Positions 7,690 through 63,991 of a stretch of 64,000 nt of DNA are shown piece by piece (positions within the stretch are counted from its first letter, which is position 1; each line of letters opens with the position of its first letter). The position numbers were made by a program, and so were the translations under genes. Below the pieces are notes generated by a model. The model was not told the DNA's origin. It did not search any database and saw only the letters and a program-made list of their open reading frames with translations. The stretch is taken from assembly GCA_964016885.1 (NCBI GenBank), contig OZ024742.1:299770001-299834000 (forward strand). The letters are read 5' to 3'. The DNA is from Eledone cirrhosa. Taxonomy: Eukaryota.

Positions 7690-10320
7690 TGTTGTGTGTA
7701 TGCTGTATATATTTGTAATCCTGGGGTTTGGGTTATGTATCTGTCTGTGATTTTCTTTTATCATTCCCAGAGGACCTATTATTATATGGATTGTTTCTGT
7801 TTTCATTATCCACATTCGGTTTATTTCTATTTGTATATCTTTATATTTGGTTAATTTCTTCATTTCCATGGGAAATGTGTTGTCGCCGGTGGGTATCAAT
7901 TAAGGAACAGATTTTGTCTTTGACTATACTATCCGGTCCGTTGGCTTTGACCTGGCTGTGTATGGTTGCTTTGTCATTCTCCAACACCTTTTGCTGGTGT
8001 GTGTCTGTTCCATATTTTCTGTTTGTATTTTGTAGTGTGGGAATGCTTTCCAGTGTATATATATATATATCCCAACTAGATCATGTCTGTGGACATATTC
8101 CTTAGTGGTTAAGACTGGACAGTCAGACTAAGACTGGACAGTCAGACTAAGACTGGACAGTCAGACTAAGACTGGACCTCAACATATGCTGCAGTTATGT
8201 GTTCAGCTTCATTATGTACTTCTGGTGGGGAAGTTTTGACCTAGTGTTGTTATTAGAAATCCTTCTGTCTCGGTGTTTAGTTCAGTGCTTTGTAGCCAGT
8301 TCTGTGGGTTTTACTTGTCTACTTCTCTATTCGACTTTTTGTGTATTGGTCATGTAAGAGTTTTTCTTGCCATCGTTCTAGAATGGCATTCTCGAGGTCT
8401 GCTTTTCAATTTCGATTTTATGGTATTTTACAATTTCTTTATTTTCATTAACCTCATAATTATCTCTCAAGTAAACTTCAGTTTGGAATTCGTTGGCTTC
8501 CTTGGAAACAGAAAACAATTTGTTTGCTTTGTTCATGTTTCGCAACTGTTTCTTTAATTTACCTTCGTTCTTCATTAGATAATTTTGTAGAGCCTCAGTA
8601 GTTATTTTATAATAGTTATCTTGTTGCATAAGGACTCTTCCTCCTTGTGTTTGTGGAAGATGTAATCTTTCTACATCTGATTTTGGATGATGTATTCTAA
8701 ATGCTGTAATTATTTTTCTTGTTTTCTTTTGTTTGTTTTTTTTTTTTTTTTTTTTTTGTGCGGCGATTGTCTATTCATGCTGGCTCTTTTAGTTTTCAGT
8801 TCAGGATATTCAAACTGTATCTTATTACTCGGATCGCTAGAGGATTGATGTCAAATAACTTATTCTTTGTATTTAGTTTTCTATTAAGTAGTAATCTACT
8901 CTGTCTATATTATTCCTTTCTAATATTTTCCTTTATCTGTATGTGTATTGAACTCTGTCTAGTTAGTTGATTCCTAAGTATTTGTATGTCTGTGTTTGAT
9001 CTAAATCTCTTATCACAGTTTCTTTATCTAGCATAATATTACTGATTTTCATTAGTTTTCCTCTCTTCAAAGTTGCCTTGGAACATTTTTCTAGTCAAAT
9101 TTCATATCTATTTCTTTTGTGAATCAATGTACTCTCTGTAGTAGTGTTTCAAGTTGTCTCTTGTTTTCAGCATACGGCATTAGATCATCTATATACAGGG
9201 AATGGTTAATTTTCTTGTAGCATTTATATCCCAGTCCAGTTCTGTTTAGTATTTCAGATAATTTTATCAGTGCTAAGCAGAAAAGCAGTGGTGGTAGGGA
9301 GTTCGCTTCAAATATCCATCTGTTCATTACGATGGGCTCAGTTTTTATAGTTCCATCCTTCGTTTGTAACTGCAGAACTGTTTGCCGCTTGCTCATGGCA
9401 TGCTTGATAAATGTTTTTATTATTTGTGCTACATTGTTAATGGCTAGTGTGTTCAGTATCGATGTGAGGAACCCTGTCAAATACCCTCTGGTAGTCAATC
9501 CATGCAATCCTGATATTTTGGTTTTGGTTTTTCTGACGTTCTTGATTATGACTTTATTGATTAGCAGCCGGCCTTTAAAGCCATATCCGACTTTGCAACA
9601 TCCTTTCCTTCGTCAAGAAGCAGATTTTTTGTGTGTGTGGGGGGGGGGGGGGGGGGGGGCTTAGTCATTTTCTGCGACACTATTGAAGTTAAAGTTTTGT
9701 ATGTAATAAGAAGGCATGTTATGGGCCTGTAGTTTTGAGGATTTGCTGTGTCATGATTCTTGGGGATCAGGGTAGTTTTTAGTTTAGTGAGCCAGTCACG
9801 TGTCTTTATTTTTCTGGCTCTGTCAACATCTCATGAAACTTTTTTGCAAGTACACCATGTCTCCCTGTTAAATATTTCAACCAAAAGTTTGGGATCTTAT
9901 TATGTCGCGTTGCCTTCCAGCTGCTTGATTTATTTTCAGTGTGCTAGCCACATCATCTATGGTAATACCTTCCCACAATTGTTCAACTTCTGTGTTCGTT
10001 GTTCTTGCTAATTCTGTGCATGGGAATCTTCCATCTCCTTCTCTTCCACTTCTTTCACTTTCGAGGCTATATTTACTTCTATTTTTTGCTATTAAGTTTC
10101 TGATAGAGTCGGTTTGGGTTCGAATGAAATATCTGGTTTTGTTCAAAAACCTTTTGGTGCTTTTCATATCCGGATCCTTTGTGACTTTGACAAATATTTG
10201 TTGTTTTAGGCATTCCTTAGTCTCCGAAATTTCCTTTTCTGTTATATTATATTTCTTTAGAATTTTTATGTTCATTCCTATTTTAGTTCAGTTGTTTTCT
10301 TTCCTATTTAATTGAGAGGT
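7690..10320 (-). pseudogene. Decayed R4/Dong-type non-LTR retrotransposon (RT plus restriction-like endonuclease)
   Basis: Minus-strand peptides NSLPPLLFCLAL..LSEILNRTGLGY..KINHSLYIDDL (RT) and KLTKYKDIQIEINRMW..TIHIIIGPLG (RLE C-terminus), with many frameshifts. Confidence 0.8.
8110..8177. repeat. 19-bp tandem repeat, about 3.5 copies
   Basis: (TAAGACTGGACAGTCAGAC)n. Confidence 0.9.
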
Positions 10321-19456: not shown

Positions 19457-19507
19457 GGCTTCTACAGGACTAGAACTGTTTCCTTCGGGAGAAATCATCA
19501 GGAAGCC
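19457..19507 (-). ncRNA. Type I hammerhead ribozyme motif
   Basis: Minus strand: GGCUUC-CUGAUGA-UUUCUCCCGAAG-GAAA-CAGuucuagucCUG-UA-GAAGCC, with a 6-bp stem I. Confidence 0.8.
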
Positions 19508-22614: not shown

Positions 22615-22882
22615 GTATTTAAGAAAGCCACAACAATGCAAAGGGAAATCTCGAGGTAGGAAGTGAAATATAGATAGGAAAAACAGGTGAAAGTGAAAAT
22701 TGAGAGAGACAAAGATGAAAACAAAACAAAGGTAGAAGGGTTAAATCTCTACTACGGTAACCCTTCTACCTTTGTTTTGTTTTCATCTTTGTCTCTCTCA
22801 ATTTTCACTTTCACCTGTTTTTCCTATCTATATTTCACTTCCTACCTCGAGATTTCCCTTTGCATTGTTGTGGCTTTCTTAA

Positions 22883-23141: not shown

Positions 23142-23250
23142 ATAATAATAAATTTGAAGACTAAAATCCAAAGAGAGCTCGATAAGGATAAATATATATC
23201 AAATATATAAGCGATTCTTTGCTTAAATTTAATCTGTTATTTTAATAATA

Positions 23251-25509
23251 CAGTGGTGTAGCTAGAGTGTGGCAAGCAGGGCACATGCCACGGGCGCCAT
23301 ATTTAGGGGGGAGCAATATTGATCTAGGTCGATTTACATCCATGTCGTTTTATCATTTTTAAAAATAAATCAAAAATGAAGCATGTGATTTCTTGATAGT
23401 CAACTTCCACGCCATGTCTAGTGCACTATACAGTGCAGATGTCTGATTTGACTTCACAAAAACGCCCCCCCCCCCCCTCCACACTGACATCAGGGTGGAT
23501 TGCAATTATGCGGGCGCTATTTTTAGCTATACATTGCAAAACAGCGGATACCTCACTTGACCTCACAACCACCCCACTACCCCCCCCACACACACACACT
23601 GACTGAAGGGACGTAGTTTTGGACGTGCAACTGGTGGACACGCAGGCGCTATTTTTAGCAATGCATTGCAATGACCAATACAAGATAATTATAATTATGA
23701 AGCTGGTTTACAAAACAAAGTAGTTTGTCTTTTACAACTGGTACATAAGACGTATAGAAAAGGTATCATAATACAAATGGCCAGATAGGATCGGATATCT
23801 TCTATTAGGAATTCAATTTGACTCCAGTTTAGATGGTTCAATGTTTTCTTCTATAATACAGTTCATCAGAATTTACTAAATCGTATCCAAAAAGCAAGAT
23901 ACTATGGTCTGCTGATTGATTCGACCCCTGACCAGGCGCACCGAGAACAACTGTCAAAAGTTGTGCGATATGTCGATGTTGATTTCAATATGAAGACGGT
24001 CGTTGTGAGGGAATCTTTTCTTGGATTCATTCAAGTAATCAAAAAAGATGCCGCAAGCCTTGTTGAAACAATCGTAAAAGAGCTAGAAAAAAGATGACCT
24101 ACCACTGCAGAAGTGTCGATCGCAGTGCTACGACAATGCTGCCATAATGTCTGGGCACCGCAATGGGGTTCAGCAGAGAATGAGAGAGAAGAAGAATTTG
24201 ATTCACTTCGTTAATTGCGATAACCATTCACTTAATCTGGCTGGTCTTCATGCAGCCAAAAACGATTCTGCTATGATGAACTTTTTCAGTTGCATTGACT
24301 CGTTATACAACTTTTTTTCTCGTTCAACACGACGATGGGTAGCCCTTAAAGAAGTTGCTCCAGTGGTTGTTAAATATCCTTCCGACACGCGGTGGAGTGC
24401 TAGATGTACCGCAGTCAGACCGGTGGCGAATTATTTGACGCTGATTGTTCAAGTTCTCGAAAGAATTAGTGATGATGAAACAGAGACATGCGAGAGTAGA
24501 AATGATGCCAGTAATCTCCATAATCGGATACTGAGTTATGAATTCCTGAACTTGATTGGATTCTGGAACACGATTCTCTCACGAATTGACCGGGTTCAAA
24601 AGAGACTTCAAGATCCAAAAATGAATTTTCACGATGCTGCAGCTGATATAGGAGCCCTTCAACTTTATTTTAAAGAAGAAGGAACATCCTTAATCCACGA
24701 GTCTCTTGAAATGGGCTTCGACCTCTGCCAGAAATGGAATGTGGATTTTCCGAGGAGGCGAGGAAGACGACAAACCAATACCGAAATTACTGAGGACGTC
24801 GAGGTGGCTGCCAGAAAAGAGATAGACAGAGCAATGCAAACTTCACTCAATCGTCTTCAAACAGAAATGGAAGAACGGTTTATTCGACTTAAGGAAACCG
24901 ACTCAAGTGTTGGCTTTCTTCTTGATGTCAACTATCTGTTTTATTTAGCTGCTCCTGATAACCTTGTCCTTAAACAAAGGTGCAACAGTCTTGCGGAACT
25001 ATACAACTCCAACATCGACGGAAAGCAATTGTATGAGGAAATCTTGGACTGCCGATCTTTGCTGGCTACTAGGACAGCTGACCCAATTTTAAAGCTGGAG
25101 GCACTTCTCCAATTCATCATACAATACGGTGATGAATGTGTTTTTCTCAATTTGCGAATCAGCATTCAAATAATGTTGACGATTTCTATTTCAATTGCCA
25201 GTTACGAGAGGTCGTTCAGCAAGCTGAAGCTAATACATTCGTATTTGCGAACCTCAATGGGCCAACAACGGCTGACTCACCTCGCCCTTTCGAGTGTAGA
25301 AATCGAAGAGTTTGAACGAACTGATTTCGAGGAAATTATCAACCAGTTTGCCTCATTAAAAGCCCGAAAAATCAAGTTGTAACCGTTTTTTGTTTTTTTT
25401 ATTATAAATTCTACCGCAATTTCGTCTTTGTGGATCTTGACTTTTTGATGGGGGGGGGGCACAATTTTGATGCTTGCCCTGGGCGCCGTTTACCCTAGCT
25501 ATGCCACTG
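23251..25509 (+). mobile_element. hAT DNA transposon, internally deleted
   Basis: TIRs CAGTGGTGTAGCTAG and CTAGCTATGCCACTG, subterminal GGGCGCC motifs, and a transposase inside. No perfect 8-bp TSD is visible. Confidence 0.9.
23860..25382 (+). pseudogene. hAT transposase (Tip100/ZMYM1-like group), frameshifted and N-terminally deleted
   Basis: DSTPD..HREQLS.VVRYV in the upstream frame, then QCYDNAAIMSG, CDNHSLNL (CxxH), TRWSAR and the dimerisation motif ERSFSKLKLI..YLRTSMGQQRL..LA in ORF 24147-25382. Confidence 0.9.
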
Positions 25510-25526
25510 TTTATATATATATATAA

Positions 25527-26114
25527 TTATTAAAATAACAGATTAAAGTTTAACATTAAATGTTAACAGATTAAAAGACAACCACACCCAATATAAGTTA
25601 CACTGGGAGATCCTAGCTAAGGCTAGATCGTATAACGGAAATAAAGGACCATGTGACCTCTGCGCCGTTGATCATAAATTGCACAAAACTTTCCTGTATT
25701 ACAGTCCCACATTATACCCTAACGGATAGTACGAACTATACGCGGATATTTTACGTCTTGATGTGGTAGCTAAGTATATGTTATGTTTATACCATTACTT
25801 ATTTGTATAGGTAAGTATATATTAGCTGTATGTTTTGTGAAGGTACGTATACTTTTTCGTACGTATACTTGATTGTATATGTTATGGCGTATATATTATA
25901 TATTCTGGTACATATGCATTTGGTTATGTGTATACGCGAGCTTTGCGTCTGTGTGAGTATGCGGGTTCGTACGTATGTAGGGTGTGTGTATATGTGTACT
26001 TTGTGTTTTGGTTGATGTACGTCTCCGAACATATGTGTATTTACTTGTAGGTATGTGTGTGCGCGTGCTATATACGTATTTATTTATATACGTTTATTTA
26101 ATTATATGTATACA

Positions 26115-26155
<41 letters not shown>

Positions 26156-26840
26156 TTTTAATATATATATATTTATGTGTATTTGGTGTATACATTCGTA
26201 TGTGTGCGGGTACAGGTGTTGTGTGGATTCTGTATGTGCGTGCGGGTTTGTTTGTTTTTTTGTGTGTACGTGCTTGTATTTGTATACCTATGACGAGTGT
26301 TTTCGCGTATGCTTGTGTTTATACGTATATGGATGCGTATTTATTTAATTTCAATTACCTCTGTATTTTATTTACTTTATTCTTAACTCTGAAGCCGAGA
26401 ATCATTCGGTTTCCTAGTTAGAATTTTAGTCTACGACTTCAGCTATACCATTTGCGTGGTTTTGTCTTTGCGCGCAATTGTTCTCCCCGATCCACATAAT
26501 GACGTATTATCTTCGTTTTTTTCCGTTCATTGCCAAAGAATGTCTCCATGAACCACCTAATAGAATATTAGTCTACGACTTCTTTTATACCATAAACGTG
26601 GTTTTGCGTGTAATTGTTTTTCATCGCTCCAAATAATGACGTATTATCTCCGTTTTTTCCCGTTCTTTGCCAGGGAGCGTTTCCACGAACCAAAGTATCG
26701 TCTTCCTGTCTTCCTCCGGTTGCAACGTTTTTTGAAATATTTACTTCTGCGTTCACAGATTGACTTTTTTAGTTTCAGAAGATCCTTTTAAGGGTGAAAG
26801 CAGCGATTCTTTGCTTAAACTTTAATCTGTTATTTTAATA
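25527..26840 (+). mobile_element. 5'-truncated Penelope-like element: inverted tail, GIY-YIG C-terminus, 3' UTR with hammerhead, TA tail
   Basis: From 25568 it reads RLKDNHTQYKLHWEILAKARSYNGNKGPCDLC, similar to the EN at 63569. 25527-25553 is an inverted copy of the 3' tail at about 26815-26840. Confidence 0.7.
26771..26821 (+). ncRNA. Hammerhead-like motif with CAGAAGA core
   Basis: AGTTT-CAGAAGA-TCCTTTTAAGGGT-GAAA-GCAGcgattctTTGC-TT-AAACT. Confidence 0.65.
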
Positions 26841-27238
26841 AATATATGAAATTTGAAAAGGGAAGTAAGGTTCTATACAAAACAGTGGTCCGAATTTGTA
26901 TAGTTTTATATATTTTACAGTCTCCTTCTCAACAAGGAAGATGAAAAAAACTTACCTTAACACTTTTAAATCTTTAATTTTTAGTTTTTAATCCTTATTA
27001 ATTATTTTTAATTGTAATACTCAAGATTTGATAAGATAGATTTTACTAATACATCGAAACCGGTAATACTTTATATACTTTATATACATTATAAAACTCT
27101 TTTTCTAAAAGAATTGTTCCTCTAATTTTTTCAATAATGCCACTTTGACGAATCAAAGAAAAAGGAATAAAAGAAAAACAGACCCTAAAATATATTTTCA
27201 GTGCTATTTCCAATCTCACCTTTTCTCTCTCTCTCTCC

Positions 27239-27400: not shown

Positions 27401-30400
27401 CAATCTAGCTAACTTGGTCATTTGCAATGCAAACACATGTATACTTGTATCAGTGTTTATCCCTATCATATATTCATTTGTATTACACGGCTCAGAAATA
27501 TTCCTTTCTTTGAGCTATTTAATTGTAAAAGACTATTGGAGTTTATAACTCTATATATAATATTCTCGGCTCCATGCGTTGAGCTAATTTTTAGTCCCAT
27601 AAAACCGGCTGCTATTTTTAGCGACACGAGTATAGGACGTGCTAGACACTGTGACACATGTGCGTTCAACAACACATTTCTCTCAGTCTTCCTAAGTATT
27701 TTGAAGTGAAACTTACCAATTTCTGGATACCTGCAGAAGAGCACAGGAATAGGAAATTTCACTTAATTGTTGCGAAACAAATTTAAAATTTGTCCAGGTA
27801 TCACGGCTATTGCCAATATAGGTTTGTTTTTATTGATTTACTAGCAGTAAAGCCCGGCGTTGCTCGGGGTCGCTCAGTAGCTGTGTTAAAGTTACAATGT
27901 TAAGTTTCTTTTTTGGCTTAAAAACTGTAGGCTCAATGTACAAGTATAGCAATTTCGTCAGAGATTCTAAGAGGAGATGTGTGCCAAAAATCGATAGACA
28001 GACAGACAACCAAGCCAGCGTAATTTTTTTAATTTTTGCACGCAGAAAATGTAAACAGAACGTAAGACGCTCAATGTAAACAGAACAAAGGGAAATAACT
28101 CGTCACTTACGCTCAAAAATCGATACATTAGATTCGATTTCGTCACATAGGGTGGGTCAATTTGAAATATTTTTTTCCGATGTCTTCGCTAGGGCTCAAT
28201 GTACAAGTATAGCAATTTCGGTGCAATTCCGTCAGAGATTCTAAGAGGAGATGTGTGCCAAAAATCGATAGACAGACAGACAACCACAGTTTTATATATA
28301 TAGATTACTAGCAGTAAAGCCCGGCGTTGCTCGGGGTCGCTCAGTAGCTGTGTTAAAGTTACAATGTTAAGTTTCTTTTTTGGCTTAAAAACTGTAGTGT
28401 CTACTGTGCAGACTTGCATGTGGTGTTTTTGATTAATATTCCCTCAACCAACAATATGCCTTATGAAGTTAAGAAAACATAACGATAACCCGAATTAAAG
28501 TAAATTCAGCCTTATAAGACCGTAAAATTAATTTAAACGTTTAATAGGGAAAGTTTGCTAACCGTCGTAATAAAAAAATAAATATCAATAACTTACGAAG
28601 TAATGAACTCGCCGAACTTTTAAAGCGTTGTAGCATACAAAGGCAGTACAGTGCAAATGAAGCTATTAAACAAACTGGAGATTCCAATTCACTCTACTAA
28701 AGATTTACTTAATCGTCTGCACATTCGCTAATCGTCTGCTCATTCCATAAAAGGGAAATAATCGCCTATATCACCTCTCTGCATGACTGTCTGTCTGCAC
28801 GCCTATATCACCTCTCTGCACGACCGTCTGTCTGCACGCGTATATCACCTCTCTGCACGACTGTCTGTCTGCACGACTGTCTGTCTGCACGCCTAACGAA
28901 ATTTACAGATACATATATTTTAAATAAACTTATATAATTTTTGCTTTTTTTTACGAAATATTTGCTTGTTTTACGTAGTCTTTAAATAGACTTGTTTTCA
29001 AGTAAAAATATTGTTTTAAAAGGCTTTTAAATGGAAATGAAGCAAAACGGAAGCTTAGTGTTCGAACTGATGAATTTTGCAGGTCAATATTTTGCTGGCT
29101 CGACAACTGTTCGTGTATTGTGTTAATGTCATTTTAAACGCTGAGAAAGCCAGCGTAATTTTTTAAAATTTTGCCAGCGTAATTTTTTTAATTTTTGCAC
29201 GCAGAAAATGTAAACAGAACGCAAGACGCTACGCTGAATGTAAACAGAACAAAGGGAAATCATTTTTTTTATTTTTGCACGCAGAAAATGTAAAGAGAAC
29301 GTAAGACGCTACGCTGAATGTAAACAGAACAAAGGGAAATAACTGATCACTTACGCTCAAAAATCGATACATTATATTCGATTTCGTCAGATAGGGCGGG
29401 TCAATTTGAAATATTTTTTTTCCGACGTCTTCGCTAGGGCTCAATGTACAAGTATAGCAATTTCGGTGCAATTCCGTGAGAGATTCTAAGAGGAGATGTG
29501 TGCCAAAAATCGATAGACAGACAGACAACCTCAGTTTTATATATATAGATTACTAGCAGTAAAGCCCGGCGTTGCTCGGGGTCGCTCAGTAGCTGTGTTA
29601 AAGTTACAATGTTAAGTTTCTTTCTTGGCTTAAAAACTGTAGTGTCTACTGTGCAGACTTGCATGTGGTGTTTTTGATTAATATTCCCTCAACCAACAAT
29701 ATGCCTTATGAAGTTAAAAAAACATAACGATAACCCGAATGTTATAACAAAAGAGGATGCTGGGGATAGAAACTGCACTGGTTATTTATTAACAAAGATC
29801 GAAAATGTAAACACTGCAACGCAGAGAAAAACATTAGCGTAACCAAATTATCAGTTATGTCTGTCTGCACGCCTATATCACCTCTCTGCACGACTGTCTG
29901 TCTGCACGCCTATATCACCTCTCTGCACGACTGTCTGTCTGCACGCGTATATCACCTCTCTGCACGACTGTCTGCACGACTGTCTGTCTGCACGCCTAAC
30001 GGCGAAATATTTGCTTGTTTTACGTAGTCTTTAAATAGACTTGTTTTCAAGTAAAAATATTGTTTTAAAATGCTTTTAAATGGAAATGAAGCAAAACGGA
30101 AGCTTAGTGTTCGAACTGATGAATTTTGCAGGTCAATATTTTGCTAGCTCGACAACTGTTAAAGCCAGCGTAATTTTTTACGTAAGACGCTCAATGTAAA
30201 CAGAACAAAGGGAAATAACTGATAACTTACGCTCAAAAATCGATACATTATATTCGATTTCGTCACATAGGGTGGGTCAATTTGAAATATTTTTTTTCCG
30301 ATGTCTTCGCTAGGGCTCAATGTACAAGTATAGCAATTTCGGTGCAATTCCGTGAGAGATTCTAAGAGGAGATGTGTGCCAAAAATCGATAGACAGACAG

Positions 30401-30648: not shown

Positions 30649-30699
30649 AATTTTTTGCTTAAACTTTAATCTGTGCTAATATTGAATATTTGCTCTGAG

Positions 30700-30743
<44 letters not shown>

Positions 30744-30794
30744 CTCAGAGAAAATATTCAATATTTGCACAGATTAAAGTTTAAGCAAAAAATT
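30649..30794. repeat. (TA)n-centred inverted repeat of a PLE-type tail
   Basis: TTTTTTGCTTAAACTTTAATCTGTGC...CTGAGGGTA-(TA)n-TACCCTCAG...GCACAGATTAAAGTTTAAGCAAAAAA, related to the 26800-26830 tail. Confidence 0.85.
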
Positions 30795-31798
30795 TCTGCT
30801 TTCACCCTGTTTAATTTATTTGAATGCCGTAATGTATTGATTATTTTATTCTGCTGTCGAGAGACAGTGCGACCGTTTACATATGTACGATTCTAGCCCT
30901 CTGTTTTCTACGTAACTTGTGTGTTATCTATGTTGTTTTGTGTTATCTTACAGAGATTTCTTCGAGAGGATGAGAATTTTTTTCCTTCTATTACCTGACT
31001 TCCTGGAAAGGACCATTGAAACCGTCTGTAATCAAGTTGAAACTATTCAGTGTCTATTCCAGTTTGACGGGTGGCTGTCGTATTAGATCGCGTTTCAGTT
31101 CTTTCGTGTAGATATTTTGGGAATATATATTATTTACGGTAGCGCACAAAGACCTTTGTTCCGCCTAATAAAATGATATTTTCACTGACATTCCTCTCTG
31201 GCAGTTCTCTCACTCCCCCTCTCTCTCTCTATCTATCTATCTCTTTCTCCCCCCCCCCTCTCTCTTTCTCTCACCCTCTCTCTTTCATCTCTTTCCTCTC
31301 ATTTTCCATTACACATATCCCACAATTCTCCTTCCGATATCTCCTTTAATTTCCGTTTGTCCTCACCATCATTCTGTTTTTACTTATATATACGTTTCTT
31401 AGGCTGGCCTCTCTACTCTAGTTTAATTGTTTTCAGACGAATGTCTTCCATATTTCTTCCTAGTGTTACTATCTTGCACTACCATCCTATGCTCGTTGTA
31501 CCTGTTTCTAGTTTTCATTTTAATGTTTAATTCATTTTGTTGCCTTAGTGTGTTATTTTATTCTGTTGTCAATCGGGAGACATTGGAATCGTTTATTTTT
31601 CCTACATCTACATTGTATCGTATTCTCGTAAATACATCTCTTCCAGAGGCTGGCAAATGTTAGCCTTTTATCTTTCGACGTCCTGGGACAGACTGTTGAC
31701 AGCGTCTATAATCAAGTTGAAATCACACTGCAACCATTCTAGTTTGACAGCTGACACGTATTTATTTGCTTTTCCGTTCCTTCGATCTGATATTTTGT

Positions 31799-38780: not shown

Positions 38781-38995
38781 CTCTGTTGCTCTAGTAACAT
38801 TTTTTCTTCTGGAAAATCTGATCTTGCAGCCAGGCTGGGACTTTGTGGGTGGCATATCGGCAGTAACAATGATGATAAACCGTCTGTGCTTTCGTGAAAT
38901 AAATATGTTTGTTTATATTTTGTTTTTGTGTATGCAAAAATATCAGTACACGAATATATAATTATATATATATATATATTAAAATAACAGATTAA

Positions 38996-39046
38996 AGTTT
39001 AAGCAAAGAATCGCTGCTTTCACCCTTAACGGGATCTTCTGAAACT
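38996..39046 (-). ncRNA. Hammerhead-like motif with CAGAAGA core
   Basis: Reverse complement of 42479-42529, within PLE-type tail 38978-39100. Confidence 0.65.
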
Positions 39047-39108
39047 AAAGAAATCAATCTGTGAACGCAGAAGTAAATATTTCGAAAAACGTTGCAACCG
39101 TATGAACG

Positions 39109-39849: not shown

Positions 39850-40533
39850 GTGTGTGTGTGCGTGCGGGAGTTTGATGGTGCCGCTGGTGGTGCTATTGCT
39901 TTTGCTTAACCCAAGGTCAGCCCTGACCAAGCAGAACTATGTTCAAAAGCATTCCTGCCGTGACCATCATGTCTTTTTGTATGAATCTCTAAGACTATAT
40001 TCTCTCTTCCTTTCTTTAATTTGAAGGATTTTTAACTGTTGTTTCTAGCATGTCTGTGTAGAGATTCCCTCTGTAGATTGTAGCATTGCTGATAAATATT
40101 GATGTTGATGGCGGGAGGAGGGGGGTATGATGATGGTGGCAGTGGTAGCAATGGCAATAGTTGCGTTGGTGGTGTGATTGATAATTGTGATGGTGACGGC
40201 AATGGTAGCACCACCACCACCACCACCACAACGCTACTACCACTGCCACCATCATCATACCCCCTCCTCCCGCCATCAACATCAATATTTATCAGCAATG
40301 CTACAATCTACAGAGGGAATCTCTACACAGACATGCTAGAAACAACAGTTAAAAATCCTTCAAATTAAAGAAAGGAAGAGAGAATATAGTCTTAGAGATT
40401 CATACAAAAAGACATGATGGTCACGGCAGGAATGCTTTTGAACATAGTTCTGCTTGAACAGGGCTGACCTTGGGTTAAGCAAAAGCAATAGCACCACCAG
40501 CTGCATGATCAAACAACTCCCGCACGCACACAC
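39850..40533. repeat. Long inverted duplication (about 300-bp arms, 88-nt spacer)
   Basis: About 39850-40148 mirrors 40237-40533, flanked by (TA)n/(CA)n. Confidence 0.9.
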
Positions 40534-42324: not shown

Positions 42325-42478
42325 TAAATATTCACTTCTTTAAAATTTTCAAATGTCAACACTTCCTGTCATACAACATTCCTAACGTCTTCACGAACCA
42401 AAGTATCATCTTCCTGTTTTCTTTCGGTTGCAACGTTTTTCGAAATATTTACTTCTGCGTTCACAGATTGATTTTTTT

Positions 42479-42529
42479 AGTTTCAGAAGATCCCGTTAAG
42501 GGTGAAAGCAGCGATTCTTTGCTTAAACT
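42479..42529 (+). ncRNA. Hammerhead-like motif with CAGAAGA core
   Basis: AGTTT-CAGAAGA-TCCCGTTAAGGGT-GAAA-GCAGCGATTCTTTGC-TT-AAACT, 16 nt before (TA)n. Confidence 0.65.
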
Positions 42530-42569
42530 TTAATCTGTTATTTTAATATATATATATATATATATATAT

Positions 42570-50569: not shown

Positions 50570-53500
50570 AGGCTGATATAGAGAGAAGGCCCATTCACTC
50601 GGGCCATTCTCGCTACTTTCACCCATCTTTCATAAAACTTGCTGGGGCAGAGCACCTCTCTCTCCATTCTGATCCTTCTTCTAAAGTGTTACTTGAAAAA
50701 AAGACCAGTTGTTGGCCGGAGAGAAAGGTGTCTGACCTCAGTCCTTTCAACCTTGTCCACCATACAACTTCTTTCGCCATGGCTATCACACAGAGGAAAA
50801 CCGCCTCTCCTTCGTTTTTGAAAGGGGGAGGCGGTTTGATCGTGACAATGTTCTCGGTGGTCAACCGGATTGGTCCCACCCGCGACAGTAGTCGTTCTAC
50901 ATAGCCCCACAGGTCAGCAACGCCCGGGCAGTGTACGATTGCGTGTGCGACGGTTTCCTCGTCACGCACGCATCTTGGACAGATCTTCTTCGAGGGGTCC
51001 CTACCCGGGCGCCCGTGTCTGTAGAGCTTGTCCCGAACGGGTAGAGCTCCTCGGTAACATTGCCAAGCCAGGGACTTTTGGAAGTTGTCCATCGGTCCCG
51101 GGCCAAACGTCCTACCGAACAGACTGGCCAGCTCGTATTCCTCCATGCCCAGAGCCTCTCCGAGAGCGTCGTCGCACTTACTGCGCACCAACCCTCTATA
51201 GAATGTTGAGGTTGAGTCTCCACTGATTGCCGGATCCGCTTGCCAGAGGGCCGTGAGCGCCTGGGCACATTCAATGTGCCAGTCGCCCACTTTTCTCGGT
51301 CTTTGCTTGACCCAGGATTGCAGCTCGGTGAGTGAGACGAGTCTCGGAAAGGCTCGCCTCACAAACAGGGCCCACACCTGCTGACCGGTGAGGAATACCT
51401 GGAGGTGCCGTAGCCTTAATACGTGTCTACGCATCGTCAGCCACGGCATCCCCAGCCCTCCGTTCGAAGAGTGTTGACAGCAGATGGATCTTCTCACTAA
51501 AGGAGCCCGCTTCTTCCAAAGAAATCGGAAGAGCGCGCGCTCCATTTTGGCGAGTGTTTTCTCTGGGCAAGGCGCGACGGTCAAGCGGTAGTAGATGACG
51601 GACGCTATATAAGCGTTCGCCACCTCCGCTCGACCTTTGAGGGATAGTTTGCACTCGGCCCACTTCTGGGCGAGTGCAAAGACCTTGCCCGTTACCTCGT
51701 CCCAGTTTTTCTCCACCTGGAGGTCTGGTCCGAACCAGACCCCGAGCAGCTTCACCGGTCCCTCCGTCCAGCGTCCGACGATACCGTCGGAGGGCATCGT
51801 TTTGCCCCTCCACGTCCCGAGTTAGAAACCGACGGACTTGTCCCGGTTCAGCTTGGCTCCTGTGAACCTTTCATATTCCACCAGTAAGGTGCCGATCTGC
51901 TCGATTTCGGAGGCGCACGACACCATTACTGTAAAACGTCATCGGCGTAGGCCGACACCGCTTTCCGCAATCCCGGTTCCAAGGGGATGCCCTGAAACAG
52001 CTCCAGCTGTAGTGGCTCGAGAGCCAGCACATACAGGAGGGAGGAGAGAGGGCATCCCTGTCGAATGGATCGCGTGATTTGGAACGGCTCCGAGAGGTAG
52101 CCGTTCACCTTGACCCTCGAGCTGGTGTTGCTGCTGTGCATTGCAGCAATCCAGCCCCTGAAAACGGGTCCGAAGCCTGCCGCCTCGAGAACTGCATCCA
52201 GGTACCGATGGCCAACCCTATCGAACGCCTTAGATTGATCCAAGTTGATCAGGGCCCCACCAAAGCCGGGTTCGTTCCCTACCCTCTCTACGATGTATCG
52301 CATGAGGTGGAGGTTGTCGTGTATGGACCTGGACGGGATTGCGCATGTCTGCGCTTCTCCCACCAGGTTCCTGACGACAAGCGCCAACCTCTTCGCTAAC
52401 ACCTTGGCCAAAATCTTTAACTCTGTGTTTAGCAGAGTTATGGGCCTGAAGTTATCTATGTCATCCCCCTTGTTCTCGTCCTTCCTCACTAGCGTGACTA
52501 CGCCCTTGGTCACAGAACTGGGAATTCTCCCGTTCTGTTGCCAGTTGCCAGTTGCAGTAGACCGCCTCGAGGAGACCGGAGAACAAGCCCGGCATCGCTA
52601 CATAAAGTTCGTATGGTAGACCATCGAGACCCGGAGATTTGCGTTTGCCGCATTGGCTCAGCGTTTCCCCTATTTCAGCGGCTGAAATCGGCCTCTCGCA
52701 GGACTTCGCCTCCCCGTCCGAGAGCCGCGCCAGACCGTCGAGGTATGGACCGAAATCCATGGCTCCACCCGGCCCGCCGCCCCTCCCGAACAGTCGTGCA
52801 AAGCGCCGTTAAAAGGCTGCGCTCATCCGCTCAGGTTCAAGGATCACGCGTCCATCCTGGTCCTTCAAAGACCGAATCGTGGACTTGTTTCCACTTTTTG
52901 CCTCTGTCACTCGGGCCCAGCTAACAGCTTTGGCTCCCTCGTTACCCAGAGCACGTATTTTACTCCTGACAACGCAGCCCTCGTGCTTCGCATCAAAGAA
53001 CTGGTCTAGGGCCGTTCTTGACGCCAGCACGCCGGCCACGTTGCCACTCCTAATCGCCTCTTCTACTCTATTTGTTAATTCCCTTTCAGTTCTATTCCTA
53101 TCTGATGCTAATTCCCGACTAAAACCTATCGATTCTATTCTAATTTCTCTCTTGAGAGAGCCCCACCCCCTGTTGTTGACAATTGCCCCCGTCAAACGCT
53201 GCTTAACTAGTGTGCTAATCCGCTTACTGTAAGCTTTGTTTGTCGGTAAAGACAAGTTTAGCTTCCAGTAACCGGGTCCCTGTCTATGAGTTCTATCAAG
53301 GTTGACCACTCCGGTCACCAACTTGTGATCCGAATAGTCAACCATGAACATTCGTGGACAGCTTAATATGTCCCTATCCTTATTTCTAACTAGGAACCTA
53401 TCTAGGTATCACCTAGATGTTCCGCTGCGATTACTCCACGTCCACCGTGCCACAGTCGGAAAATCTAGTCGATATCTATCGGCCAGATCAAATCGGCCGA

Positions 53501-54007
53501 TTAACCGTTTGAGGCTGTTACACCCCCCCCTCTATCGGGACATGCCCCTACATAGTCCCAACGTGCATCCAGGATACCGTTCCAGTCTCCCACTAAAAGC
53601 AAGGAGCGAGACGTTCCCAGGAAATTCTCCAGGCGTCGGAAGAAGTCCGGTCGCGGTGTCCCAGATAGGGCATACGCTGCCACCAGCCTGAAAGCTCCAC
53701 CTTCACCACTGCCGACGTCTAAAACCACCAGTCGACCCTCCGAGTCCAGGTGTACCTTCTGTGAGGCAAGACCCAGGTATTTTCGCAGCAGAACGACAAC
53801 CCCACCCCCACCCCTCGGCTGACAGAGAGATGCGTAGATCTCAAAGTCGTCGAAGATGGGGGCCAGTTGGCGCTCGCTGCTGATCCTGGACTCGCAAATA
53901 ACCATTACATCCACTCTGTGCGACCTGCGGTCATTTAAGAGTTTGCCCTGTTTCCAGGACATCCCCAAGCCGCGTGCATTCACACATTCAACTCTTATGT
54001 TGGCCAT
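50570..54007 (-). pseudogene. LINE ORF2 (APE endonuclease, reverse transcriptase, zinc-binding C-terminus), broken into at least 5 ORFs
   Basis: NARGL, ICES, GDWN and YSDH (APE); KSPGLDGLPYELY, FRPITLLN, LDQSKAFDRV, RQGCPLS and AYADD (RT); GGLG and CPRC..EETVAHAIVHC. Confidence 0.92.
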
Positions 54008-54049
54008 GTTGGTGCTGAAGAGTTAAAAAGGAAGAGAAAAGGAAATTAC

Positions 54050-59891: not shown

Positions 59892-61274
59892 ATCATCATC
59901 ATCATGATCATCATCGTTTAACGTCCGTGTTCCATGCTTGCATGGGTTTGGACGGAGGATTTTCCCACTTGAGGCAAGAGTGGTTATCTTGCTCGCATAG
60001 GACTATCTGGCGGGTTTTCTACAGCTGGATGCCCTTCCTAAAACCAACCACATTTACAGTGTGGGGCTGGGAGGTTTTTACCGTGTTGCCTACACGGCCA
60101 GATTACAGCGTGAACTGTGTGTTTTTTTGACGTGACACCTACACGATCTCATTTGTTTCGGCCTTGATGTTGTGGCACCAACATAACTTTACATTGAAAG
60201 GGGTGGATGGGGTGGGGTGGGGGGGGTGTATTTTGTTAGAGATGCCTACTGACTGTAGTAGGTTTTACTTTGTATTTAGGTAAGGCGGGTCTTCTCTTTT
60301 ACTGAGTACCGCCAAAGGTCTCGGTCCAGTGACATTGTCTTGGTGAGGTGTAAGTGTGTGAGGTCGGAATTTATCAGCTCGTCCCAGGTTTTTCTGGGTC
60401 TGCCTATTCCGTTGCTACCGTCTATCTTTATTGCCCTGCACTTTGTTATACAGCTATCGTCCTTCATGCGCATCACGTGACCATACCAACGTAGCCTTCT
60501 CTCGAGTAAACAACATCTGATCCCTCTTATTTCTAATGTTTTCCTTAGTTCGTTTATGCTTTGCCGTTCACGTATATTACTATTACACATCCAGCGGAGC
60601 ATGCAAGCTTCGTTCCTCTCTAGTCTGCGTATATCCTCTGCACACAATGCCCAGGTCTCACTGCCGTGCAACATTGCTGTTCGTATGCAGGCATCGTACA
60701 ACCTGCCTTTCATTTTTAGGGAGAACCCTTTAGCGGCTAATAGTGGTATGAGCTCTCTGAACTTTTTCCACCCAGTTCTGACTCTAGCTACTGTACTTTC
60801 AGAGCACCCTCCCCCACTGCTGATTTTATCACCCAGGTAACGGAAGCTGTCCACTATTTCTATAGAACCCTCTGCGCAGTTGAAAGAGCTAGTATTCTGT
60901 GGGCACTTGCTGCTACTTATTGCCCCAGAACACCGGCCACATGTAAAATCTATGTTCTTAGTTAGCTTACCTGTGATCCCACTACATCTTTTATGCACCC
61001 AAACTTTGCATTTCGGACACAAAATGGAGTTTCTACCTACGCCTTTCCTACACTCTGAGCATGGCCACTTCCCGGAGGGGACCGCCGCCTTATTTTCTTT
61101 CTTACAAACTAGAACTTTAGTCTTAGCCAGGTTAATTTTAAGGCCTTTTGATTCTAGGCCGTGCTTCCATGTTTGGAATTTCTTCTCTAGCTCGGCCATT
61201 GTTTCAGCTATGAGCGTTAGATCATCTGCGTATAGGAGTTCCCATGGGCAGCCGGTCTTGAACTCCACTGTTAT
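59892..61274 (-). mobile_element. 5'-truncated RTE-clade LINE (RT C-terminal half intact, (GAT)n tail)
   Basis: ORF 60276-61289 contains CPWELLYADD, GLKINLAKTK, FRYLGD, MLHGSETW, RRLRWYGHV and GRPRKTW. A plus-strand (CAT)n tail lies at 59892-59914. Confidence 0.9.
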
Positions 61275-62396
<1,122 letters not shown>

Positions 62397-62769: not shown

Positions 62770-62851
62770 ACTCTCTGATGAAGAAAGGATTCTCCATGGT
62801 CTCCATTTGGAGACTATGTATATCCCCTTTCAGAAACTAATTAGTTAGAGT
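62770..62851 (+). ncRNA. Minimal hammerhead ribozyme motif
   Basis: ACTCT-CTGATGA-aGAAAGG..CATGGTCTCCA/TGGAGACTATG..CCTTTCa-GAAA-CTAATTAG-TT-AGAGT, with perfect stem I and palindromic stem III. Confidence 0.8.
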
Positions 62852-63290: not shown

Positions 63291-63568
63291 CAATATAATA
63301 TATAAAGGATTATGAGTTCATTCAATTGACTTATGTTTCGTTACTATTATAACTCCGGAACTTATATCTTCATTGAGTGCTCCCTATCCGCATACTGAAG
63401 TACTGGATTTTACCAACACTTCGTGCTTACCCCATACTCCACACCTTGTTGAGCGCTTCATACAGTAGCGGACCGCAGCCAATATGAATAAACTCACCAC
63501 TCTGGCATCACTGAAGGACATCCCATTACCGGGTAAACGCGGTACATGTGCAGGGGCTTAAGAAATCA

Positions 63569-63991
63569 TGCAATTGCAGAGAGCCATCACTATTCCCCCT
63601 TAATAATGAATGCACGACGAAAAACGTAGTCTACAGGTGCAAGGTCACAACCTCTAACTCAGAGCACCACTACATAGGATCCACGGCGACGAGCTTCTAA
63701 GATAGGTGGTATAACCATCGCCATTCCTTTAACAGAATAGAAAAGAGGAAATGTACGGCCCTCTCTGAATTGATCTGGAAGCTCAAACTTGAAAAGACCC
63801 CGCACTCTCTGGTCTGGTCCGAGGTTAGAAAGGCTCCCCCAGACAGAAGTGGGTCTGGTATTTGCAACCTCTGTCTTAGTGAGACACTCGAGATACTTCA
63901 TGGCGGAACCAAGCTATTAAACAGAAGGGCTGACTTATTCGGTGCCTGCAGACACCTAAAGACAGGAACTTTCCTCAAGCTATGTGGATAA
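63569..63991 (+). pseudogene. Penelope-like GIY-YIG endonuclease domain with one in-frame stop
   Basis: CNCREPSLFPLNNECTTKNVVYRCKV..HYIGSTATSF*DRWYNHRHSF..TALSELIWKLK..CNLCLSE..LLNRRADLFGACRH. Confidence 0.85.

Follow-up and report, generated by a model that had tools for sequence, protein, structure and literature searches.

An A4-core hammerhead in a Hydra-type Penelope-like element family of Eledone cirrhosa

Do Penelope-like elements (PLEs) need self-cutting RNA in order to spread? Passages of Craig 2021 (PMC8557442) report a canonical hammerhead near the 3' end as universal in the Hydra clade, describe the function of PLE hammerheads as unclear, and suggest that the motifs are possible passengers. 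Here, we consider an element of Eledone cirrhosa whose hammerhead has the core CAGAAGA, with A rather than U at position 4. The window, by which we mean the whole stretch of 64,000 nucleotides analyzed, is AT-rich and microsatellite-rich, and holds several retroelement and transposon remnants. Judging from sequence, 25521-26845 appears to be a single 5'-truncated PLE of the Hydra clade, highly repeated (Table 1); this copy is itself dead, being 5'-truncated. Because a young, very abundant family carries a change absent from 44 + 26 clade hammerheads, it may serve as a natural experiment on whether PLEs need self-cutting to spread.

Table 1. Parts of the element and related copies in the window (. 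= strand not assigned).
Feature	Positions	Strand	Evidence
(TA)n target, left end of insertion	25510-25526	.	sequence; contig depth ~1e3 left of target
Inverted tail copy (= 26815-26841)	25527-25553	-	sequence comparison
Junction filler, 18 nt	25554-25571	+	sequence; match to organism B and E contigs ends at 25572
PLE ORF end, last ~52 codons, putative GIY-YIG endonuclease C-terminus	25572-25729	+	HMM, hhalign, phmmer
Long 3' UTR, ~1.05 kb	25730-26754	+	sequence, contigs
Predicted type I hammerhead, A4 core	26755-26830	+	descriptor scan, folding
Tail, 24-29 nt from predicted cut to 3' end	26817-26845	+	window copies, contigs
Second copy, A4 core, 5' end at reference position 26684, ends in (TA)n	42392-42548	+	
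Third copy, A4 core, 5' end at ~26717, TA repeats on both sides	38977-39100	-	
39-nt fragment of the A4 family, part of stem III and tail	23210-23248	+	sequence comparison
Sister subfamily, head-to-head tail-(TA)n-tail	30650-30810	.	sequence comparison

The initial annotation had listed an inverted tail for this copy, and 25527-25553 is indeed an exact 27-nt reverse complement of 26815-26841, its inner end lying 2 nt beyond the predicted scissile bond between 26816 and 26817. The adjoining filler (25554-25571) is made up of a snap-back palindrome (25550-25566) and a short inverted-tail repeat ending in TAAA microhomology with the ORF. In the endonuclease (EN) remnant, the CxxC motif is kept, about 69 nt are missing at 25672, and the stop codon occupies 25727-25729. 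The 3' UTR has a TG/TA-rich half, a TA/T run near 26122-26174, and a tandem duplication of about 140 nt (26419-26555 and 26561-26692, 78% identical). Insertion into (TA)n, a Hydra trait, is evident in public contigs, where TA-rich loose ends are seen before 25512 in 59 contigs and after 26847 in 116 contigs of run X1. Just to the left, 23251-25509 is a hAT element with 15-nt terminal inverted repeats (13/15 identical), a 431-aa transposase piece (PF05699) and no 8-bp target duplication. It exactly occupies the space separating a + strand tail fragment of the A4 family from that family's inverted tail; an earlier tail-TA-tail arrangement around it is only a guess.

To which clade does the element belong? 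The EN remnant, LKDNHTQYKLHWEILAKARSYNGNKGPCDLC, translated in the + frame from 25571, gave 7 phmmer matches at E<=1e-3 among 1.84 billion proteins. Six of these are PLE-type endonuclease ends (best identity 58%) and one is an unrelated repeat protein. One of the matches (P0005) led to 148 longer relatives, and an HMM built from the 120 of these that were listed scores the remnant at E 5.6e-7, while hhalign gives a probability of 95.5 (E 1.5e-8). The assignment of a GIY-YIG C-terminus in the initial annotation thus holds. Passages of Craig 2021 (PMC8557442) give RWK, DKT, a CxCx5C linker, the lack of CCHH and a divergent RT4 as Hydra markers; among the matches listed, the 48 relatives of at least 660 aa have RWK/RWR in 46, DKT/DKS in 47 and CxCx5C in all 48. 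In full-length relatives, CxCx5C, RWK and DKT lie upstream of the region spanned by the remnant, and the A4 family's own upstream ORF is known for 30 letters. The remnant itself carries CDLC (CxxC), and the CxH part is deleted in the 25521-26845 copy. Contigs fill in some of what this copy lacks. Loose letters before 25673 read K-K-S-E-A-I-S-A-C-K in 19 contigs of run X1, abutting the His codon of the window; those before the truncation read S-L-S-A-Y-I-W-S. The Hydra consensus peptides TELSKYIW and KRSELISKCRH match these readings.

A tail motif points the same way. For comparison, we used 93 Hydra-type loci, 78 from metagenome and 15 from genome contigs. GCTC lies 30-61 nt after the cut in 30 of the 38 loci with enough sequence, as against 1/44 in the control, and also stands at the 5' start of the published Hydra-1_Ajap consensus in the part of PMC8557442 that gives it. 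The A4 family's tail continues into this motif in contigs of organisms B and D, where GCTC is found at +31. By EN profile and GCTC tail motif, then, we assign the element to the Hydra clade. Neither a word-indexed search with the remnant among longer proteins nor phmmer in the 1.84 billion proteins found a same-family protein, and no RT or intact ORF of the A4 family was recovered from protein searches or public contigs; autonomy of the family is something we infer from homology. Pfam leaves the remnant unmatched and barely matches full-length Hydra proteins (RVT_1 above cut-off in 1/7), and no Hydra relatives were found in viral contigs. Two other identities were rejected: Naiad/Chlamys, since the EN is C-terminal and Hydra-type, and Hydra-1_Obim, whose EN end, UTR and hammerhead (CUGAAGA core) differ by visual comparison. 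The window contains a second Hydra-clade EN remnant of another family at 63530-63960 (+), with a near-whole EN domain, a CNC linker and one stop (HMM E 3e-42); the window ends before its 3' end is reached. Hydra-type PLE ORFs also occur on 15 contigs (L079-L093) filed under bacterial genome assemblies, where they most likely represent host DNA contamination.

Contigs of four public runs were compared with 25380-26960, with the small-share runs X6 and X9-X20 left out and the TA run 26103-26187 masked. Among 23 public runs listed with matching contigs, none is of RNA. Summed depth in the flanks of the element is about 1e3 (left) and 5-6e3 (right) in run X1. Within 25486-26651 it stands at 9e4-4.6e5 in 19 of 22 bins, the exceptions being the masked TA-run bin (0) and the two bins after the TA run (about 2e4), and over the last 200 nt it rises to 1e6-1.9e6. 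This is the depth profile of a 5'-truncating retroelement, and suggests thousands of copies or more, where summed depth is not copy number and single contigs stand at depth 15-50. An 844-nt contig of organism B matches 25572-25671 with 3 differences, continues with 70 further letters, and then matches 25673-25824; the same joint is present in organism E, and 70 letters lie between 25671 and 25673 in runs X5 and X8. Upstream of 25572 the organism B contig has another 520 nt, the last 30 letters of which are in frame and give an EN helix. Set against these contigs, the copy at 25521-26845 has its truncation point at 25572 and is short of about 69 nt, in frame. A join of 25749 to 26720, with a short side of 42 letters, is seen in one X1 contig; several others join 25808-25840 to 26672-26679 with short sides of 23-25 letters, and are weaker evidence. 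None of the listed contigs spans the whole element, and none bridges the TA run at 26122-26174. Depth and joints nonetheless show that a single repeat, bounded by TA runs, carries EN end, UTR, hammerhead and tail, in keeping with the earlier reading of the module as the 3' end of a PLE. A retrozyme was rejected: there are no tandem units, and the 5'-truncated copies lie scattered and are linked to an EN remnant. The family's 3' hammerhead pattern had 0 matches in metagenome and viral contigs.

The hammerhead pattern AGTTT-CAGAAGA-T-stem II-T-GAAA-GCAG..TTGC-TT-AAACT occurs three times in the window, at 26771-26821 (+), 42479-42529 (+) and 38996-39046 (-), exactly the copies named in the initial annotation. 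In the first, CAGAAGA occupies 26776-26782, GAAA 26796-26799 and the CUU triplet 26814-26816. The annotated helices also bear out: stem Ia (26771-26775/26817-26821) has 5/5 Watson-Crick pairs, stem II has 3 pairs above a U.U, and stem III has 5 pairs. With A15.1-U16.1, H17 and three helices around the core, the architecture is that of a type I hammerhead, and relative to the canonical core (C3 U4 G5 A6 N7 G8 A9 / G12 A13 A14) only position 4 deviates, being A in 3/3 copies. An alternative core register with U3-A8 was rejected because the sequence is incompatible with it. Behind a 7-nt pyrimidine bulge, 26755-26763 pairs with 26822-26830 to form a 9-bp distal stem I (Ib); stems as long arise in 0.3% of 1000 shuffles and in 3/41 relatives. 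Other features are less favorable to the active fold. Stem II of the 26771 copy is weakened by a C-G to U.G change compared with the other two copies, and a slipped register of stem III is predicted to be 1.3 kcal/mol more stable than the active one, with pair probabilities of 0.40-0.51 versus 0.33-0.52. The active fold lies 2-5.5 kcal/mol above the predicted minimum, and whole-motif folding z-scores are near 0 and non-significant.

The heptamer CAGAAGA alone is at chance level (7 in the window, 6.5 expected); the full descriptor, with position 4 left open, has 10 matches in the window versus 0.17 per shuffled window (30 shuffles). These comprise 6 CUGAUGA matches, the three A4 copies and 1 loose CAGAAGA match at 27734. 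Because the six CUGAUGA matches, at 19501 (-), 19527 (+), 39594 (-), 39707 (+), 36629 (+) and 1979 (-), belong to other families, canonical cores exist in the same genome. Two pairs of these six lie in inverted repeats. A further canonical hammerhead is seen by eye at 62770-62845 (+); its stem II carries a long insert and its stem III is a palindrome, and the scanner missed it because of a spacer limit. No hammerhead is found among the Rfam matches listed for the window (150 of 209). Near-perfect long inverted repeats around TA runs, foldback or MITE-like, lie at 22676-22825 and 39870-40514, and account for spurious Rfam microRNA matches. Non-LTR remnants are also present, at 50619-54022 (-), 60276-61370 (-) and about 8378-10287 (-); RVT_1 and zf-RVT frames are found at 50.6-52.6 kb, an RT with a PHD-like insert at 60.3-61.4 kb, and, by eye, RT-like fragments near 8.4-10.3 kb.

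Was A4 inherited, or did position 4 decay in individual copies? The 5' ends of the three A4 copies differ (25572, 26684 and ~26717), as do their flanks. Over 26717-26840, two copies are separated by 1 difference (99% identical) and stand 4-5 differences from the third. As three independent U-to-A changes are implausible, A4 would have been present in the source element and copied repeatedly; independent decay has a probability of ~1e-6 under a rough assumed rate, and was rejected with 3/3 copies A4. Comparison of the copies thus shows A4 to be inherited from the source element; the initial annotation had likewise set decay aside. The tally at position 4 is of three window copies, and 3/3 gives a 95% lower bound of about 37% if they are a random sample; of the contig variants, the 40 of 199 listed include none to the right of 26677, so that position 26777 falls outside them. 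Because the copies are young, little about selection can be read from their intact stems.

The sister subfamily at 30650-30810 shares GAAAG..CUU and the stem Ib arm, and both of its arms are truncated before position 4. Its stem III loop is changed with the pairs kept, the slipped register is absent, and its tail is longer. The tail-(TA)n-tail arrangement is palindromic; the tail itself continues beyond GCTC, which suggests that there is another RT start site, later than the first.

How unusual is A4 within the clade? A scanner left open at position 4, which recovers the three A4 copies of the window, finds a hammerhead after the EN in 52 of the 93 Hydra loci, 44 of them distinct. All 44 have U4 and C15.2-G16.2; U.U at the base of stem II occurs in 23, A7 in 9 and U17 in 5. 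Of the 41 loci without a scanner hammerhead, 8 lack the EN end, and a looser pattern finds U4 in 9, with no instance of A, C or G at position 4. Published Hydra rows in the portion of PMC8557442 covered agree, with CUGA and C15.2-G16.2 in 26/26, U.U in 14, A7 in 4 and U17 in 10. Hence the U-U pair, A7 and U17, which the initial annotation had listed, are ordinary for Hydra hammerheads. Other traits do set the A4 family apart. It has G15.2-C16.2, reversed relative to its relatives; stem III, from G12 to H17, measures 21 nt versus 12-14 in the 44 relatives; and the hammerhead lies about 1080 nt from the EN, where the median in relatives is 160 and one relative reaches 1206. What stands out is thus limited to A4, the reversal of the 15.2-16.2 pair, a stem III of greater size and the long UTR. 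The motif stands in the place expected in the Hydra clade and has clade-typical traits, but its core is CAGAAGA where that of the clade is canonical. It is a variant of the Hydra clade ribozyme, and the element stays in the clade.

Outside PLEs, partial scans of viral contigs give 1/116 A4-pattern loci and 20/119 U4-pattern loci passing a test for 4+4 bp stems, and at 4+3 bp 2 A4-pattern and 20 U4-pattern loci pass; A4 patterns in viral contigs are near chance. A minimal hammerhead-like CAGAUGA with 5+5 bp stems rich in G.U is present in one such contig (L133:33-90, -), and is chance-compatible. Passages of PMC4209133 and PMC8557442 already describe hammerheads, tails and inverted 5' pieces in PLEs, as well as their targeting of TA. 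The passages and supplement text of Perreault 2011 (PMC3088659) and Cervera 2014 (PMC4209133), exclusive of figures, do not mention U4A, and the supplement text of Perreault 2011 (PMC3088659) contains no CAGAUGA, CAGATGA or CAGAAGA. A family-level U4A PLE hammerhead was not found in literature searches, although Lunse et al. 2017 and the figures of variant papers may list U4A. It is likewise absent from the relevant passages of PMC6765202, PMC11014351, PMC13481778, PMC6155905, PMC13282606, PMC2553840 and bioRxiv 10.64898/2026.07.22.740005.

What would such a core do to the element? In minimal hammerheads, U4 substitutions cost orders of magnitude. On balance we favor, with moderate confidence, the reading that A4 leaves the ribozyme inactive or very slow and that uncleaved RNA serves the family for its spread, because A4 is disfavored elsewhere, CUGA mutants are weak and the slipped stem III competes. 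Passages of Perreault et al. 2011 (PMC3088659) place U4 in contact with the A6-N7 phosphate, and describe a natural viroid variant, U4C, that is far slower in vitro but viable in vivo. For one type III ribozyme, the portion of Roberts 2023 covered reports low activity of all single and double mutants in the CUGA region, except for a C:G swap. A numeric rate for U4A was not found in the literature. The intact stems, larger stem III and distal stem run counter to this reading, and suggest that the fold is kept for something.

A route from uncut RNA can be modeled on a Poseidon PLE. Sections of Frangieh 2024 (PMC11167929) report that its protein nicks AT-rich DNA, that RT begins inside the RNA and leaves a tail, that hammerhead mutants do not affect insertion in vitro, unprocessed RNA being the main substrate, and that cleavage by the PAc hammerhead needs protein. 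By analogy with PAc, the RT-EN protein of the A4 family would nick (TA)n DNA, and reverse transcription would begin at an internal site in the RNA, 24-29 nt past the point of cleavage. Cleavage would then leave only a tail-length template, and long copies would come from uncut or re-ligated RNA. If a cut template gives only tail-length cDNA, a weak ribozyme would therefore cost the element little. Template switch or snap-back would account for the 5' junction, with its inverted tail and filler. Of the seven pieces in the window that bear a tail, six extend over the cut by at least 7 nt (5' ends at 25572, 26684, 26717, 26791, 26802 and 26810). Reading across the cut is non-discriminating, being normal also for PLEs with canonical cores.

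Alternatively, the A4 hammerhead may be an active natural variant, with compensation by the extended stem I, a U-rich bulge contacting loop II (GUUAA), an enlarged monomer-type stem III and perhaps the element's protein; cleavage would then create the 5' end at 26817 for tail-length inverted cDNAs. We regard this as rather unlikely, and it is unlikely that the Hydra family rebuilt its hammerhead into a working ribozyme through A4, G15.2-C16.2, a monomer-size stem III and a bulged 14-bp stem I. The stems and the 12 other core letters are intact, there is extra structure, and the stem III change in the sister subfamily keeps the pairs. The bulged distal stem I could contact loop II, and stem III is large enough for monomer folding. 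Activity has precedents in the U4C variant (in passages of PMC3088659) and in the protein-assisted cleavage of PAc (in sections of PMC11167929). The inverted tail stops at 26815, and 25553 is also where one X1 contig departs from it, but the reference piece itself ends at 25553, biasing that match. The two A's beyond the cut could be snap-back filler, a junction of the kind that run-off at a cleaved 5' end would leave. Other strand-switch joints, among the X1 joints listed, fall at 26765 and 26788, away from the cut. Canonical Hydra loci hold 15 duplicate tails, of which 8 are cut by contig ends and were set aside; of the 7 kept, 1 has its breakpoint within 5 nt of the cut. A4 is also about at chance level among viral hammerhead patterns, and in the part of Roberts 2023 covered, double mutants never rescued the CUGA region of one type III ribozyme.

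Other readings concern what the three copies represent. A4 might mark a young sub-lineage only, with most of the family or an autonomous master having U4 and the A4 copies moved in trans. Position 4 has been read in three copies, two of them 99% identical, and the family has yielded no RT or intact ORF; yet A4 is present in 3/3 copies with independent 5' ends, the more diverged copy included, and the deepest listed contig of organism B (26684-26798) has 7 differences, as against 8 in the 42479 copy, and is A4-compatible. A sub-lineage of this kind therefore seems improbable. It is highly improbable that the EN remnant and the hammerhead module were inserted independently, as unrelated elements nested within a single microsatellite tract. 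Their spacing of ~1080 nt versus a median of 160 in relatives, and the TA run 26122-26174, bridged by none of the contigs listed, would fit such an arrangement. Against it, the A4 family's tail is fused, inverted, to the EN end, depth is similar on both sides in runs X1 and X5, the X1 joints 25749>26720 and 25808-25840>26672-26679 (the latter with short sides of 23-25) connect the halves, and both halves are independently Hydra-like.

The favored reading, a slowed or inactive ribozyme, and its rivals differ in what they would mean. If the A4 RNA is uncleaved, amplification without cleavage would be shown in a genome, and the kept fold would point to another role, such as protein binding or positioning of the RT start. 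If it cleaves, U4 would be non-invariant, and CUGANGA searches would undercount genomic hammerheads. Should the rebuilt ribozyme prove active, inverted tails at the scissile bond would be the first genomic footprint of PLE ribozyme action.

Among known systems, the closest are the Hydra PLEs, as described in passages of Craig 2021 (PMC8557442). Shared features are a GIY-YIG at the C-terminus, in which CxxC and CxH surround the conserved E and N, insertion into (TA)n, a type I hammerhead near the 3' end that often has U.U at the base of stem II, a short tail, and an inverted 5'-truncated piece. The Hydra hammerheads compared have U4 and C15.2-G16.2, whereas the window family has A4, G15.2-C16.2, a larger stem III and a UTR of about 1.05 kb. 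Hydra-1_Obim of octopus, in the portion of its record covered, has a CUGAAGA core and, by eye, another UTR and EN end, and is a separate family. Poseidon PAc of Anolis, in sections of PMC11167929, likewise has its hammerhead upstream of genomic 3' ends, several tail end points and AT-rich targets. PAc differs in that its core is canonical, its hammerhead overlaps the ORF start, and it belongs to Penelope/Poseidon, so that the mechanism above is transferred by analogy. Passages of PMC3088659 and PMC4209133 describe natural core variants with single substitutions in intact motifs (U3-A8, A6C, U4C, U15.1-A16.1), compared with which U4A is here carried by a multi-copy retroelement family. Finally, axolotl HHR_Amex2, in the part of Cervera and De la Pena 2020 (PMC7229834) that treats it, is also type I with a U.U mismatch at the base of helix II, but its repeats are in tandem and non-autonomous, its helix III is short, and it has no EN.
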